Origin: Nitrososphaeraceae archaeon
GTDB lineage: Archaea; Thermoproteota; Nitrososphaeria; Nitrososphaerales; Nitrososphaeraceae
Length of the DNA: 31,843 nt
Assembly (NCBI GenBank): GCA_029240435.1
Contig: JAREAI010000001.1
Location: 1 to 31,843, forward strand
Reading direction: 5' to 3'
This document shows positions 18,078-24,567 of this stretch, one piece after another (the stretch's first letter is position 1; each line of letters starts with the position of its first letter). The notes beneath the pieces are model-generated. The model did no database searches. It was not told the DNA's origin and saw only the letters and a list, made by a program, of their open reading frames with translations. The translations under genes and the position numbers were made by a program.

Positions 18078-18584
18078 ATGGACACGAATATTCCAGATCA
18101 AACAAAAAGAGGATTGGCAGCTGCAAGCGAAGAGACGAGATTAAGAGTTGCAAGAAAAGGAGGAATTGCTCCACACAACTTAAGAGGCCTTGCCGCCGCA
18201 GACTCTGAGACTAGATCGAGGGTAGCAAAGGCAGGTGGAGATGCAAGAGCTCAAGACAAAGAAGGCCTAAGACATGCCGGAAAAAAGGGAGGTGAAGCAG
18301 TAAAAGCTGAATATGGAATAGAATTTTACCATTCAATAGGAGAGAAAGGCGGAGAGTCGGTAAAGGAGAAATACGGAATAGATTTCTATCGTGAAATTGG
18401 TGAAAAAGGTGGTGGGATTGTTAAGGAGAAATATGGACCAAAATTCTACCGTGAAATAGGAAAGCGTGGTGGTGAAACTATAAAACAGTCACATGTTGCT
18501 GAATTATATAGCGCAATAGACAGGAAGGCAGATGAACCAAACGCAGAAGAAACAACTACTAATAATGATATTTCACTCGTTTAA
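18078..18584 (+). CDS. KGG/Em(LEA5)/GsiB-like repeat general stress protein
   Basis: Two GLAAA..ETR.RVA(R/K).GG repeats and about 3.5 20-aa G(E/K)KGG..VK.(E/K)YG..FY..I repeats; very hydrophilic. Confidence 0.85.
   Translation: MDTNIPDQTKRGLAAASEETRLRVARKGGIAPHNLRGLAAADSETRSRVAKAGGDARAQDKEGLRHAGKKGGEAVKAEYGIEFYHSIGEKGGESVKEKYGIDFYREIGEKGGGIVKEKYGPKFYREIGKRGGETIKQSHVAELYSAIDRKADEPNAEETTTNNDISLV
18279..18476 (+). repeat. 60-bp tandem coding repeats (units begin at 18279, 18339, 18399 and partial 18459)
   Basis: Degenerate 60-nt units each encoding G.KGG..VK..YG..FY..I. Confidence 0.85.
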
Positions 18585-18899
18585 CAATTTGTTCGCATTA
18601 TCTGATATCACTGCTTTGAAAAATCTAATATATTCTGAGTCATCAAATTCAATAGTTACAAATTTCTTCTCAAATGCAGCCTGCGTAAGACTTTTTAGAT
18701 GGTAGCAAGGCTCAGCATTAGAAAGTGCCTGAAAATAATAATTCTTGCATGAACAAAATTCTAGTTCTGGATCGAGCCAATGCTCGCTGTCCTTACCCAC
18801 TACAGTCCATAGCATCCTGCCACTAGGTTGAAACAAATGCAGTTTCACACCTCCGAAATTTACTATGTCATCAATACGTTCAGATTGAATTTTTTTCAT
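18573..18899 (-). CDS. SWIM zinc-finger protein
   Basis: CSCKNYY...PCYH (CxC-xn-CxH); ATG 18899 (MKKIQ) preferred over 18941. Confidence 0.8.
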   Translation of the reverse strand: MKKIQSERIDDIVNFGGVKLHLFQPSGRMLWTVVGKDSEHWLDPELEFCSCKNYYFQALSNAEPCYHLKSLTQAAFEKKFVTIEFDDSEYIRFFKAVISDNANKLLNE

Positions 18900-19400
18900 A
18901 TTGGTAACATAAATAAGGCTAATAATATAAAAACTTCTCATAAATATCTATAGACATATAATAAATAAAGAAACTAGAACGTTTTTTTCTGTTATGTTGA
19001 TCGTAAAAATTTAAAGCTGAAAACTTTATAGTTAGCGTTACTTATAATTCTAAAGAATTATTAGTTAATCAGAGACCTATAGTCGGGCCTTATAGAATAT
19101 TAAAAAAGTAATTTTTCGTTGGATAGATATTTAGACAGAATTTATTATGACTTTTTCTCAAATAAAAAATATTAGAAAACCCATAAGCAATTATTATATA
19201 TTTGGTCAAGGAATAGTTTTCGCACTACGAGCATTTTGAAAATATAATGCAGAATTAATAATGAGATGCTCTTTATTAATCATTAGTGTTTTGAAAGTAT
19301 AGAGCGAAGACTATAGCTTCTATCGATAATGATTCTAATTGACTTTTTGTTATTGACTATAACTGCAGAAATGAAGATGAGGATTACTATTAGTATTGCT

Positions 19401-19418
19401 ATTATTATTATTATTATT
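19401..19418. repeat. (ATT)6 microsatellite
   Basis: attattattattattatt just beyond the 3' end of the HiPIP-like pair. Confidence 0.85.
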
Positions 19419-19441
19419 TTAGGAGAAGGTAGCAGAAAGAG

Positions 19442-19759
19442 TCATGTTTTTTGTGGAACACTTCTCGTATCATGAATTTTGTCATAGTTTGGTTCATATC
19501 CGTTACAACAACCATGCGGTGCTATTACTCCAGATTTCTTTCCAGAGACATCAGGTCCTTCATGATCTACTATCATGCATTTTCCTCCAGCTGCATCTAT
19601 CCAGTATATACAGTTGTAACAAAAATATCCTTCCTCGTGATTAGAATCTTTGAATTCGTCGCGCTCCACATAAGCTGCGTTCAATTTACTCTGCTTTTGG
19701 AATTTTGTCACACTGCCAATCATATCTTTTGCTTTTTCAAATACATTCTTGTCAGACAT
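19442..19759 (-). CDS. HiPIP-like 4Fe-4S protein, paralog B
   Basis: CYNC-x10-C-x23-C with C.IV...G.I.P.G.C..Y; ATG 19759 lies 4 nt after the upstream paralog's stop. Confidence 0.7.
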   Translation of the reverse strand: MSDKNVFEKAKDMIGSVTKFQKQSKLNAAYVERDEFKDSNHEEGYFCYNCIYWIDAAGGKCMIVDHEGPDVSGKKSGVIAPHGCCNGYEPNYDKIHDTRSVPQKT

Positions 19760-19763
19760 CGAT

Positions 19764-20051
19764 CTAGTGAACCTCCTTTTCATTTGGCGTCCATAAAGAG
19801 CATATCGCATGAGGAGCAATTACACCTGATACATTACCCTTTATGTCCTGCCCTTCATCTGTGACAATCGCGCAATGGTGTGGCTTCATAAAATAGTCAC
19901 AATTATAGCAAAAATATCCTTTATGGGTATCAGCATTCGCAAAATGACCTATTTCTAAATATCCTGACACAACCTTTGTTAATTTTTTATGCTTTATTGC
20001 ATCTTGGTCAATATTCTGACTGGATGTAAAGCCTTGTGGATTTATTGTCAT
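19764..20051 (-). CDS. HiPIP-like 4Fe-4S protein, paralog A
   Basis: CYNC-x8-C-x23-C with CAIV...GVIAPHAIC..W; AGGTGA SD-like motif upstream of the ATG. Confidence 0.72.
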   Translation of the reverse strand: MTINPQGFTSSQNIDQDAIKHKKLTKVVSGYLEIGHFANADTHKGYFCYNCDYFMKPHHCAIVTDEGQDIKGNVSGVIAPHAICSLWTPNEKEVH

Positions 20052-20474
20052 AACCTAATTCACCTAGTACAGTCAATAGGATTACAAATTATAAATATGA
20101 TTTGAGAATTTTGTTCATAAAAACAATACTACGATCTGGTATGTTCGCCCTATTATAATACAAAGATAATGCCCCGGCTGGTTGTGGTATCTAACACACA
20201 AAATGTGCAAATAAGCTAAAATGTCTAGACAGTCAATATATTTCTTCTAGATGATTTGTTTCTGTAAGTCAGTCACTCGCAAAGAAAATAACGCAAAACC
20301 TCCTTAAAACACAAATATCGTAATTATTGCCTTAAATCCATTAGGATTTAAGAGTACTATAAAATAAATGCAACTTATTCTGATATTTATTAGTCATTTA
20401 TAGTCATATCAAAAACGAGCGGTTAGTAAACCCTAACACATTAAATATTTGATTGATTCCAATAAGTCGATAGT

Positions 20475-21245
20475 GTGGTAAGTATTAGCTCCATACATTC
20501 AAAGGCTGCTTTGCTAATTGACGAAGACACAAAAAGACGAAGATATATGGTAATATCAGATTTACACATAGGATTTGAATCTCAAATATATACTAGAGGA
20601 ATTACTTTTGATGAAAAGGTATTTTTTGACGAAATGATTCAAGAATTATCTTATCTTATTAAATCTAACAGAGTAGAAGCTGTCATTTTACTTGGTGATT
20701 TGAAAAGCACAGTCGGGGGGTCAATCAGTAAACAAGAGTGGCAAAAAATCCCTCGGTTTTTCAAACTCCTCTCTGAGATTACAGATATTTATTTCGTGCC
20801 CGGTAATCATGACAGCAACATAAGGTTCTTAATGCCAGAAAATATAAACATCATGAGCAGCAAAGGAATGGTTCTGGATGATACGCTTCTAGTTCACGGC
20901 CATACCATGCCGACGATTGCTAGGTCATATATAAAAAAAATCATTATGGGACATATTCATCCTGTATTTCTTAGACATAATAGCGTAATTAATGGACAGC
21001 GAGTCTGGATATATCTTAAAATAATAAAAGAGGCAATATTTCCTACAACTCAAGGAACTCTTGACCTAGTCATACTTCCTGCCTTTAACAGATACCTTTA
21101 CGCAATTAATGAAAGACGCTATACAAAATCAATTTCTCCAATAATCGCCAAAGCCATAAAGTCAAATGCAGTTCAACAGGCTCTAGTCGTTTCATTGGAT
21201 GGTTCCATAGTTGGTGATATTGAGACTTTACTAAAAATAATTTAA
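20475..21245 (+). CDS. calcineurin-like metallophosphoesterase
   Basis: SDLHIG, LLGDLK, PGNHD, HGH, MGHIHP, PAFN. Confidence 0.9.
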   Translation: MVSISSIHSKAALLIDEDTKRRRYMVISDLHIGFESQIYTRGITFDEKVFFDEMIQELSYLIKSNRVEAVILLGDLKSTVGGSISKQEWQKIPRFFKLLSEITDIYFVPGNHDSNIRFLMPENINIMSSKGMVLDDTLLVHGHTMPTIARSYIKKIIMGHIHPVFLRHNSVINGQRVWIYLKIIKEAIFPTTQGTLDLVILPAFNRYLYAINERRYTKSISPIIAKAIKSNAVQQALVVSLDGSIVGDIETLLKII

Positions 21246-24200: not shown

Positions 24201-24567
24201 AACTCTTATTCCATATTTTTCTATTATTTTGTCTTTATAGAGTGCTACGCCACAGTTCAGGGCCGTTTGTCCGCCAAAAGCTAACATAATAGAATCAGGT
24301 CTTTCTGCCTCAATTACTTCCTCGACAAATTTAGGAGTAATCGGTAAAAGATAAACCTTATCAGCGAATCTTGTATCAGTCTGAATAGTAGCAATATTAG
24401 GATTTATAAGAACACTCTTGATTCCGTCTTCCTTAAGTGCCTTTAAGCATTGAGAACCGGAGTAGTCAAAATAGCGGTCATTATAATTGACTTTCGCCTG
24501 CTTCTCCGATCTTAATAGCTCCACTACCTAATACGACAACTTTCTTTATTGTTTCATCTTTTGGCAA
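21294..24567 (-). CDS. carB: carbamoyl-phosphate synthase large subunit, split gene: join(24567..24493, 24470..21294), 1083 aa after removal of 22 nt
   Basis: Exon 1 from TTG 24567 (SD GAGGAGG at 24578-24572) reads MPKDETIKKVVVLGSGAIKIGEAGE; exon 2 reads FDYSGSQCLKALKE and continues with all CarB motifs to the C-terminal MGS domain. The track's ATG 24524 N-terminus (MELLRSEKQAKVNYNDRY) is an out-of-frame artefact. Confidence 0.95.
24471..24492 (-). other. 22-nt bulge-helix-bulge intron in carB mRNA (predicted)
   Basis: AGUCAAUUAUAAUGACCGCUAU; central helix GGCG/CGCU, bulges AA|A and AU|U, intron stem GUCA/UGAC; canonical cut sites give an exact in-frame join. Confidence 0.85.

Follow-up and report, generated by a model that had tools for sequence, protein, structure and literature searches.

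Two adjacent genes for small paralogous proteins

In the window, the whole 31,843-nt stretch of DNA that was analysed, two small ORFs, here called A and B, lie one directly after the other on the minus strand, and a preliminary description had already pointed to them as a tandem pair related to iron-sulfur proteins of the high-potential type (HiPIPs). The features of the locus are as follows, in the direction of transcription.

20088..20095, minus strand: archaeal TATA-box-like sequence TTTATAAT, a putative promoter element
20060..20065, minus strand: AGGTGA, Shine-Dalgarno-like, 8 nt ahead of the start codon of ORF A, putative function
19303..20057, minus strand: transcribed unit comprising A and B together, from metatranscriptome contigs; its 3' tail measures about 90-140 nt
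19764..20051, minus strand: ORF A, A-type HiPIP-like protein of 95 aa, covered by RNA contigs (from the sequence, ATG at 20049-20051 and TAG stop at 19764-19766)
19771..19776, minus strand: GGAGGT, Shine-Dalgarno-like, putatively for ORF B, inside the terminal codons of ORF A, 11 nt ahead of B's start codon
19760..19763, minus strand: spacer of 4 nt separating the A stop codon (TAG) from the B start codon (ATG), from the sequence
19442..19759, minus strand: ORF B, B-type HiPIP-like protein of 105 aa, covered by RNA contigs (from the sequence, ATG at 19757-19759, giving the conserved start MSDKN, and TGA stop at 19442-19444)
18078-18584: LEA_5/KGG protein gene near the pair

The earlier reading of two small paralogous ORFs 4 nt apart was confirmed by the 19760-19763 spacer and by the similarity of the two products (37% identity in BLASTP, E 9e-22). 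A longer reading of ORF B from a TTG start at 19819 was rejected, since it overlaps A and differs from the conserved start. Both ORFs are real genes, as seen from their median dN/dS values against orthologues (0.12 for A and 0.11 for B), from the A-then-B order, which is kept in 74 of 81 loci and recurs in a distant lineage, and from metatranscriptome contigs that span both of them. Each paralogue forms about 200 clusters at 90% identity; together with the dN/dS values and the invariant cysteines described below, these cluster counts place the pattern in A and B far beyond chance. A 100% identical locus is present in the MAG contig DASQRW010000046.1.

Single metatranscriptome contigs ran over both ORFs (19303-20057 in X15 and 19352-20050 in X17), and the A+B transcript was readily assembled from six small, independent soil metatranscriptomes, in which RNA contig coverage was absent at 18926-19267 and at 20066-20635. 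The 5' ends of the RNA contigs (20050-20057) lie about 30 nt downstream of the TATA-box-like sequence. Since the Shine-Dalgarno-like sequence of B is located inside A, 11 nt before the ATG of B, the arrangement fits translational coupling, and A and B would be cytoplasmic proteins made from one bicistronic message with coupled translation.

As to their location, neither a twin-arginine motif nor a genuine hydrophobic N-terminus was found in A, B or any of 354 family members; hydrophobic N-termini in 3 of the 354 sit upstream of the conserved start and therefore look like over-extended gene calls. The statement that neither protein carries an export signal of the Tat or Sec type was thus borne out, also across the 354 members, and the lack of a Tat signal in A and B indicates a cytoplasmic location.

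Relationship to the HiPIP superfamily

The cysteine and aromatic pattern of the pair had been taken as the signature of the Pfam HiPIP family (PF01355), a claim of which one part stood, namely profile homology to HiPIPs of solved structure, and another did not: B stays under the Pfam gathering threshold of 22 bits, A alone has no Pfam match, and the characteristic Trp is missing from both. B scored 15.8 bits against this model over its full length and 16.7 bits over the domain (E 0.017), which was its sole Pfam match as well as the sole HiPIP match in a six-frame scan of the 3.07-Mb assembly. Across 401 Thermoproteota genomes no HiPIP match exceeded the Pfam cut-off, and sub-threshold matches (E <=0.1) were common in six-frame scans, occurring in 50 of the 401. 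Within the family itself the Pfam HiPIP model was the commonest weak match, reached by 14 of the 46 domain sequences with E 1.5e-4 at best, the model of the HiPIP-type iron oxidase Iro matched 7 of the 46, and language-model neighbours of the family carry the name of the PROSITE HiPIP profile.

Comparison of profiles with PDB sequences gave graded results. A family profile, A1, found nothing, and the 46-sequence profile A2 reached only three chains, all of them HiPIPs and all sub-significant, with the four Cys aligned to those of 3h31 across an 11-residue gap; these matches stayed below significance because the 11 columns of an insertion were treated as match states. When 1.84 billion proteins were searched with the family profile (168 matches), two relatives with a short loop between the third and fourth cysteine were found, P0368 (E 2e-6) and P0389 (E 5e-5). 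The long repeat proteins P0292 and P0382 in the same match list were discarded as low-complexity matches to the insertion region. The family and the short-loop domains were aligned by hhalign at 97.8% (E 9.4e-13), and a profile of the short-loop domains matched PioC (6xyv, E 7.9e-6) and 3h31 (E 0.003), while a profile built from A, B and four short-loop domains matched both again (E 3.2e-5 for 6xyv and 1.7e-4 for 3h31) and also reached 1hlq with the conserved G-Y aligned. All four Cys align with the ligand Cys of 3h31 and of PioC, in which the cluster is held by Cys22, 25, 34 and 47 (PMC7462912). Significance for solved HiPIPs was reached only with the short-loop relatives, so that the link is transitive and passes through two bridging proteins; a search of 5.8 billion proteins found no further relatives of P0368.

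A structure prediction from a 32-sequence full-length alignment was set aside (pLDDT 49), and the AF2 model that was used (pLDDT 74.3, pTM 0.64) has almost no regular secondary structure. Foldseek of this model against 350,542 PDB chains returned four matches, all HiPIPs and all weak (E 0.35-7, TM 0.25-0.48). VIA-align against 48,161 chains likewise returned four at Z >=2, again all HiPIPs and weak (Z 2.2-3.0), among which PioC was aligned over 51 of 54 residues. For family members, the models in the ESM Atlas resembled the AF2 model (TM 0.7), and among the labelled Atlas clusters those nearest to it were HiPIPs (TM about 0.5). The idea of a cytoplasmic HiPIP-like pair therefore held up, on the profile matches to PioC and 3h31 (E about 3e-5 and 2e-4), on the hhalign result and on PDB matches of the model that are weak and solely HiPIPs, and remote homology supports placing A and B in the HiPIP superfamily, as divergent proteins that carry no signal peptide.

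The predicted ligands are C48, C51, C60 and C84 in A (C-x2-C-x8-C-x23-C) and C47, C50, C61 and C85 in B (C-x2-C-x10-C-x23-C), in exact agreement with the spacings noted earlier, including the extra Cys of B (C84) next to the fourth ligand (C85). The four Cys are invariant across 46 diverse domain sequences. The K..K....Y segment that had been noticed ahead of them is likewise present and invariant (K22, K25 and Y30 in B numbering). It had also been remarked that the loop between Cys3 and Cys4 is longer than in classical HiPIPs, which proved correct: the 23 residues of this loop in A and B, compared with about 12-13 in the classical proteins, result from one conserved 11-residue insertion, which is missing in classical HiPIPs and in the short-loop relatives in the alignments. 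The positions are taken from alignment gaps.

19830..19862, minus strand: insertion of A between Cys3 and Cys4, residues 64-74, TDEGQDIKGNV
19535..19567, minus strand: insertion of B between Cys3 and Cys4, residues 65-75, DHEGPDVSGKK

Within the insertion G, D and G are invariant, and once it is taken out the Cys spacing of A (C-x2-C-x8-C-x12-C) is identical to that in PioC and Iro (PMC7462912, PMC10654088). Seven to eight aromatic positions around the Cys are conserved. The redox couple expected of a HiPIP is [4Fe-4S]3+/2+ with a midpoint of +50 to +500 mV. In HiPIPs the cluster is shielded by a Trp (or Tyr) at Cys4-1 together with an aromatic residue at Cys4+2/+3, and this Trp is considered to matter for their high potential (PMC7462912). 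The position Cys4+3 is aromatic throughout (W in 144/144 A-type and Y/W in 129/129 B-type sequences; Trp in A and Tyr in B of the window). Cys4-1 is Ile in A and Cys (C84) in B of the window, and across the family it is I/L/V/M in the A-type and Cys in 120 of 129 B-type sequences, with Y or W in 8; as neither A nor B has the Trp at this position, a high potential should not be taken for granted. The N-terminus of B is a hydrophilic helix with one 11-mer of the EKAKDMIGSV type, an amphipathic repeat that B-type proteins carry in 0-3 copies. This N-terminus is similar to LEA/CsbD-type repeats. We regard a HiPIP-type fold with an Fe-S cluster as probable for A and B.

Host, gene neighbourhood and candidate functions

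Among the 401 Thermoproteota genomes the family was present only in Nitrososphaeraceae, and the occurrence of an archaeal amoA in the same assembly identifies the host as a Nitrososphaeraceae ammonia oxidiser. The family is unnamed and is labelled 'hypothetical protein' throughout the sources compared. No neighbours beyond the A/B pair itself are conserved in the 81 loci and the paralogous loci of this genome, and no conserved redox-enzyme gene was found in the 81 loci or beside the paralogues. Neighbours specific to individual clades include a wHTH gene, a helical-repeat protein (directly downstream of the pair in 27 loci), TruD, an aminomutase, a cupredoxin, DsbA and EamA, and a Mn-catalase lies within 6 kb of the pair in Nitrosocosmicus-like contigs. 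A C-terminal C2H2 finger is present in 72 of 201 A-type sequences, and an N-terminal winged-helix-like domain in the relatives P0299 and P0301; these nucleic-acid-binding fusions occur in paralogues and relatives, not in the pair of the window. No [NiFe] large subunit was detected in this assembly, which is 85% complete. The pair and its flanks matched neither defence-system models nor Rfam families, searches of IMG/VR viral contigs with the family profile or P0368 as query gave no relatives, and tblastn against phage genomes gave matches at chance level only.

The best overall explanation, to which we assign a probability of roughly 0.55, is that the cytoplasmic HiPIP-like A/B pair serves as a redox module for sensing or signalling. 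Each core would wrap one cubane [4Fe-4S] cluster via the four invariant Cys, as predicted by homology, and an envelope unusually rich in aromatic residues would shield this cluster, with Tyr at Cys1-17 and Phe at Cys1-11, then Tyr/Phe and Phe directly ahead of Cys1 and Tyr behind it, Tyr and Phe/Trp following Cys2, and Trp/Tyr at Cys4+3. The acidic 11-residue loop (E-G-x-D-x-x-G) between Cys3 and Cys4 would probably form an extra surface element, and B would add an N-terminal amphipathic helix of the 11-mer-repeat type and a Cys in place of the shielding Trp. A and B would most likely associate into a heterodimer with two clusters; this suggestion of the preliminary description gained support from the conserved order of A before B, from RNA that covers both genes and from two-domain proteins in which such domains are naturally fused (A and B domains are joined in single chains in P0368 and P0389), and we regard such a heterodimer as rather likely. 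The favoured module would be oxygen-tolerant, transfer one electron and report on redox state, O2/ROS, NO or iron, with the C2H2 zinc-finger and winged-helix fusions of A-type relatives as its nucleic-acid-binding outputs. A pair that is cytoplasmic in an aerobe and has no adjacent redox enzyme argues for sensing or signalling rather than for a respiratory carrier, and the fusions in relatives are a hint in the same direction. Taken by itself, a sensing or regulatory role for A and B is a tentative assignment.

The nearest competitor, which we consider possible and rather doubtful, is a soluble cytoplasmic electron carrier, i.e., a two-cluster HiPIP-type shuttle that would move single electrons between cytoplasmic or membrane-associated oxidoreductases in ammonia oxidisers of soil, possibly docking on the membrane through the amphipathic N-terminal helix of B. 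The evidence for HiPIP homology applies equally to such a carrier, all HiPIPs that have been characterised serve in electron transfer (PMC7462912), the ease with which the transcript was put together from six small metatranscriptomes of soil is what an abundant protein would give, and the B-type 11-mer amphipathic repeat in 0-3 copies would suit the docking. However, no redox-enzyme neighbour is conserved in the 81 loci or beside the paralogues, no [NiFe] hydrogenase was found in this 85% complete genome assembly, a high-potential couple would have no obvious partner in the reducing cytoplasm, and the domain fusions lead to nucleic-acid-binding modules and none to redox domains. The same fusions enter into the weighing of structural zinc or another mononuclear metal bound by the four Cys, which would make A and B small zinc-finger-like adaptors or nucleic-acid-binding proteins whose likeness to HiPIPs would go no further than the Cys pattern: many A-type paralogues carry a genuine zinc finger in the same chain, the metal is not readable from sequence alone, the direct Pfam HiPIP score is sub-threshold, many small Cys proteins give similarly weak HiPIP matches, and weak matches to GATA-type and eL34 zinc knuckles appear in the profile lists. 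Nevertheless, those zinc-finger matches have E values of 0.3-4 versus 1e-4 to 1e-5 for HiPIPs, all fold matches, with their weak scores, are HiPIPs, only one C-x2-C knuckle is present with Cys3 and Cys4 isolated, and the seven to eight conserved aromatics around the Cys are as expected for a buried cubane, which together render zinc improbable.

Still less probable, to our judgement, is a store, carrier or scaffold for iron-sulfur clusters, or a protein of stress or dormancy, in place of a redox-active module. Hydrophilic stress-type genes (LEA_5/KGG, helical-repeat, Mn-catalase) lie near some of the loci and the N-terminus of B is LEA/CsbD-like, but those neighbours are not conserved family-wide, in the HiPIP fold the cluster is buried and its transfer to other proteins is not known, and none of the Pfam and NCBIfam searches linked A and B to A-type carriers, Nfu or Isc/Suf scaffolds.

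The sensing reading can also be put in a stronger form, in which A and B would be a stand-alone sensor of an unrecognised archaeal class of HiPIP-fold Fe-S redox sensors for oxidants (O2/ROS), NO or iron status. Such a sensor would use an oxygen-stable cytoplasmic cubane within the heterodimer, and the C2H2 and winged-helix fusions would be its nucleic-acid-binding versions. Nitric oxide is an intermediate of archaeal ammonia oxidation. We judge this form unlikely; if true, it would mean that soil ammonia-oxidising archaea have a lineage-specific redox signalling system whose fold has hitherto been seen solely in electron carriers that bacteria export.

Nitrification in soil is driven by ammonia-oxidising archaea, about whose electron-transfer and regulatory proteins little has been learned; the general view is that copper proteins take the place in them of the haem or HiPIP of bacteria. 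The present work defines a conserved, expressed family with a HiPIP scaffold in a new setting, namely in the cytoplasm and divided over an obligate A/B pair, with a loop insertion that is conserved and with changes in the shell of the cluster. If a cubane is bound, the HiPIP fold extends to the archaeal cytoplasm, the pair offers a natural experiment on how potential is tuned by the shielding Trp and by loop insertion, and soil nitrifiers gain a candidate redox/NO sensor or a missing cytoplasmic carrier.

Comparison with known systems

Unlike zinc ribbons and rubredoxins, which have two knuckles, A and B have one C-x2-C and single Cys3 and Cys4 residues, and Pfam and NCBIfam scans of the A/B family returned no zinc-ribbon or rubredoxin families. 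A model for a possible mechanism is offered by the WhiB-like (Wbl) proteins of actinobacteria, small cytoplasmic four-Cys [4Fe-4S] proteins of aerobes that serve in redox- and NO-responsive regulation; they are helical and bind a sigma factor, and most of them lack a DNA-binding domain. The analogy is functional only, as the searches found no relation in sequence or fold between them and A/B.

The short-loop relatives P0368 (176 aa) and P0389 (174 aa), from metagenome contigs, carry the domain twice, each copy with four Cys and with the K-x-x-K...G-Y leader, and a Cys-Cys doublet as in B-type proteins is present in the second copy. In contrast to A and B, the two domains are fused and lack the insertion, so that the C3-C4 loop has 11-12 residues as in PioC, and both proteins are singletons; the contigs that encode them also carry ankyrin, ZZ, VWA and TFIIS-type genes and look like giant-virus or eukaryote-associated DNA, not like that of archaea.

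Bacterial HiPIPs have a twin-arginine signal peptide and are periplasmic (PMC7462912). A and B differ from them in having no Tat signal, in the 11-residue insertion, in the replacement of the Trp at Cys4-1, in scores below the Pfam cut-off and in extra aromatics around Cys1; they are moreover encoded as a pair (A-then-B in 74/81 loci), and their hosts are archaea without cytochrome c or photosynthetic reaction centres, the usual partners of HiPIPs. On the other hand, like PioC of Rhodopseudomonas palustris TIE-1 (6xyv), the Rhodothermus marinus protein (3h31), that of Rhodoferax fermentans (1hlq) and Iro of Acidithiobacillus ferrooxidans, A and B are small and, in the model, almost without regular secondary structure, with four aligned Cys, the conserved Tyr of the N-terminal G-Y motif and aromatic residues at Cys2+3 and Cys4+3, and with PioC and Iro in particular they share the C-x2-C-x8-C spacing, seen in A, and the C-x12-C spacing that appears once the insertion is removed.

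Gene pair and its transcript

A and B are adjacent small paralogous genes on the minus strand, and the following features of their locus were read from the sequence.

Features of the A-B locus
20049-20051 (ATG) to 19764-19766 (TAG), minus strand: ORF A, 95 aa
19757-19759 (ATG) to 19442-19444 (TGA), minus strand: ORF B, 105 aa
Between ORF A and ORF B, minus strand: spacer of 4 bases
Within the last codons of A, 11 nt upstream of the B start, minus strand: GGAGGT
8 nt upstream of the A start, minus strand: AGGTGA
20088-20095, minus strand: TATA-like TTTATAAT box

The two products share 37% identity (E 9e-22), and their Cys spacings, C-x2-C-x8-C-x23-C in A (C48, C51, C60, C84) and C-x2-C-x10-C-x23-C in B (C47, C50, C61, C85, with an additional C84), agree exactly with those claimed in the preliminary description. 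Its claim that export signals are absent was also borne out: neither A nor B has a hydrophobic or twin-arginine N-terminus, nor has any of 354 relatives save three over-extended gene calls. Lacking a Tat signal, A and B stay cytoplasmic. The N-terminus of B is a hydrophilic segment, with 0-3 copies of an 11-mer (D/E-K-A-x-D-x-x-G-N-V) across B types.

In public data each paralogue forms about 200 clusters at 90% identity, all named ones annotated 'hypothetical protein', and median dN/dS against orthologues was 0.12 for A and 0.11 for B. An A-type gene was followed at near-constant distance by a same-strand B-type gene in 74 of 81 Nitrososphaeraceae loci; in a distant lineage a B-like gene lies 1-25 nt beyond an A-like gene, in the same order as in the window, an assignment borne out by subtype HMMs. 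At the RNA level, 63-80% of sampled locus words were present in six soil metatranscriptomes and contigs covered the locus in four of those six runs, a single contig spanning both ORFs in two of them (19303-20057 and 19352-20050). No metatranscriptome contig covered the flanks 18926-19267 and 20066-20635; coverage of both ORFs with bare flanks argues against DNA carry-over. Such coverage is consistent with a single bicistronic mRNA whose 5' end lies some 30 nt downstream of the TATA-like box. A and B are thus genuine, expressed, paired and co-transcribed genes.

Several other features were observed in and around the locus. The A-B transcript has an (ATT)n-rich low-complexity stretch (19368-19429) in its 3' untranslated tail. 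This stretch is overlapped by a probably spurious ORF of the opposite strand (19329-19475; 48 aa, hydrophobic). In a complete genome of the window's family (G120:C1:1439518-1439810), B appears to be divided between two frames (profile positions 3-57 and 53-98) and follows an intact A; a frameshift or pseudogene is possible. Elsewhere in the window, a LEA_5/KGG-repeat stress-type protein gene (18078-18584, plus strand) converges with a 12-nt overlap on the gene of a 122-aa protein (18573-18941, minus strand). This protein has a SWIM-like motif, C-x-C...C-x-H, and matches DUF5844 weakly; contigs from the soil metatranscriptomes cover both genes. In carB, the N-terminal motif is spread over two frames at the start of the gene (24455-24567, minus strand): one reads ...GSGAIKIGEAGE up to a stop, and the other takes up the motif at FDYSGSQ beyond a 22-nt insert, which leaves the listed carB ORF with an internal GTG as its start.

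Organism and distribution

The window assembly (3.07 Mb, 403 contigs, 85% complete) contains archaeal amoA, and at that completeness no [NiFe] hydrogenase was found in it. Besides A and B it carries a further, diverged pair (57% identical to A and 73% to B) together with a near-copy of it, as well as a lone A-type gene that ends in a C2H2 finger of zf-met type and has no B gene after it (contig C379, 11795-12072; L006). An A-B locus of 100% identity occurs in a MAG from soil that bears the label Nitrososphaeraceae archaeon, and the best 80 loci in a species-representative genome collection were all of Nitrososphaeraceae type (Nitrosocosmicus, Nitrososphaera or loosely labelled MAGs). Among 200 other genomes of the class, the domain was carried by 10 of 14 from the window's own family and by none of 186 from the other families, including none of 114 from the largest one. 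In a survey of 401 genomes of the phylum with the A2 profile, built from 46 domain sequences, the window assembly and both other genomes of its family were positive and the remaining 398 were not. Searched with the family profile, 1.84 billion representative proteins yielded only 168 matches, showing that the family is small.

Relationship to HiPIPs

The preliminary description had called the pair HiPIP-like, on a Cys and aromatic pattern taken as the signature of HiPIPs (PF01355). B matched a single Pfam model, HiPIP, and its 15.8 bits fell short of the cut-off of 22; A alone had no Pfam match. In six-frame scans of 401 Thermoproteota genomes, weak HiPIP matches (E <= 0.1) occurred in 50 and none exceeded the Pfam cut-off; since weak matches are common, the direct match of B alone proves little. 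Across the family, HiPIP was the commonest weak Pfam match (14 of 46 domain sequences, best E 1.5e-4), and the model of Iro, the HiPIP-type iron oxidase, was matched by 7 of the 46. The 46-sequence profile reached three PDB chains at E <= 10, all HiPIPs, the best being Rhodothermus marinus HiPIP (3h31), where HMMER aligned the four Cys and opened a single 11-residue gap. In the six-frame Pfam scans, the genomes of one Thermoproteota family (f21, e.g. L031-L050) gave sub-threshold HiPIP matches (14-20 bits) in 29 of 32 cases, mostly at model positions ~29-50 in ORFs of 50-80 aa; these ORFs could represent a further small Cys-protein family that has escaped recognition.

Two rare metagenomic relatives with short loops bridge the two families. 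P0368 (176 aa; L025 429-959) and P0389 (174 aa; L028 3051-3575) were found by the family profile at E 2e-6 and 5e-5, and bear the domain twice per chain with a Cys3-Cys4 loop of 11-12 residues. Aligned by hhalign, the family matched these four domains with 97.8% probability (E 9.4e-13) and the same 11-residue gap as with 3h31. The four-domain profile in turn matched the Rhodopseudomonas palustris HiPIP PioC (6xyv) at E 7.9e-6 and 3h31 at E 0.003; with A and B added, the values were 3.2e-5 and 1.7e-4, followed by Rhodoferax fermentans HiPIP (1hlq) at E 0.23, where the invariant G-Y of the family aligned to G-Y of 1hlq, and then by noise (E > 2). These profile statistics support A and B as probable HiPIP members at superfamily level. 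The P0368 contigs, with ankyrin, ZZ, VIT/VWA and TFIIS-type genes, look giant-virus or eukaryote-associated, and no further relatives of P0368 were found among 5.8 billion proteins.

The AlphaFold model (second run, 46-sequence domain alignment; pLDDT 74.3, pTM 0.64) has almost no regular secondary structure, as has been described for PioC (PMC7462912). Foldseek against 350,542 PDB chains returned four matches (E 0.35-7, TM 0.25-0.48) and the independent VIA-align against 48,161 representative chains returned four at Z >= 2 (Z 2.2-3.0; PioC aligned across 51 of its 54 residues), all of them HiPIPs; the scores are low in absolute terms, though the matches are specific in direction. ESM Atlas models of family members resembled the AlphaFold model at TM ~0.7, the nearest Pfam-labelled clusters were HiPIP (TM ~0.5), and the clusters that a language model places next to A, to B and to a distant member carry automatic names taken from the PROSITE HiPIP profile. 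Other ESM Atlas neighbours include phage (Uroviricota) clusters at TM ~0.5, one HiPIP-profile-labelled and two of prohead-protease/SppA type, and a haloarchaeal-type NosL+HiPIP fusion cluster.

Possible roles and comparison with classical HiPIPs

A and B form a conserved, co-transcribed, signal-less and HiPIP-homologous pair with four invariant Cys. Each chain would bind one cubane cluster, and conserved gene order, translational coupling and natural fusions suggest that A and B assemble as a heterodimer. C2H2 fingers are unusual in archaea, and one of zf-met type is present at the C-terminus of 72 of 201 A-type sequences; two relatives, P0299 and P0301, bear an N-terminal winged-helix-like domain. 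P0299 (L029 6001-6597, GCA_030041295.1) and P0301 join this domain, a weak TrmB/MarR match, to an A-like domain, and in one archaeal MAG such a fusion is the sole copy of the domain.

No conserved redox-enzyme neighbour of the pair was found in the loci surveyed, and this, together with the C2H2 and winged-helix fusions, tilts the balance slightly toward sensing. We therefore tentatively favour a module that senses redox state, oxidants, NO or iron, with a probability of about 0.35. A soluble carrier is an only slightly less probable alternative, placed second because such fusions are expected of a sensor domain rather than a carrier and a redox enzyme is not conserved nearby. It is improbable that the four Cys make up a structural zinc site, and a storage or stress role seems more improbable still. 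As a sensing module or otherwise, the pair is a solid lead in an environmentally important group, although the fold class itself is not new; among the papers searched, none dealt with HiPIPs in Nitrososphaera or in ammonia-oxidising archaea.

The closest known family to A and B is HiPIP. Without its insertion A reads C-x2-C-x8-C-x12-C, the exact spacing of PioC (Cys22, 25, 34, 47; PMC7462912) and Iro (Cys24, 27, 36, 49; PMC10654088). A and B differ from HiPIPs in four features, namely Pfam threshold, loop length, Cys4-1 Trp and Tat signal, and hence are not HiPIP proper. The longer C3-C4 loop noticed earlier proved to be a conserved acidic 11-residue insertion (E-G-x-D-x-x-G; G, D, G invariant). 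Classical HiPIPs carry a Trp at Cys4-1, to which, along with an aromatic at Cys4+2/+3, the hydrophobic shell that underlies the high potential is attributed (PMC7462912). A-type sequences have I/L/V/M instead, and 120 of 129 B-type sequences have Cys (8 have Y or W), so that a high potential cannot be assumed; Cys4+3 is W/Y throughout. Unlike classical HiPIPs, A and B also have additional invariant aromatics around Cys1 and Cys2, B has the extra hydrophilic segment of 11-mer repeats, and the domain occurs as an A/B pair (74/81 loci) or, in the short-loop relatives, as an A-B fusion.
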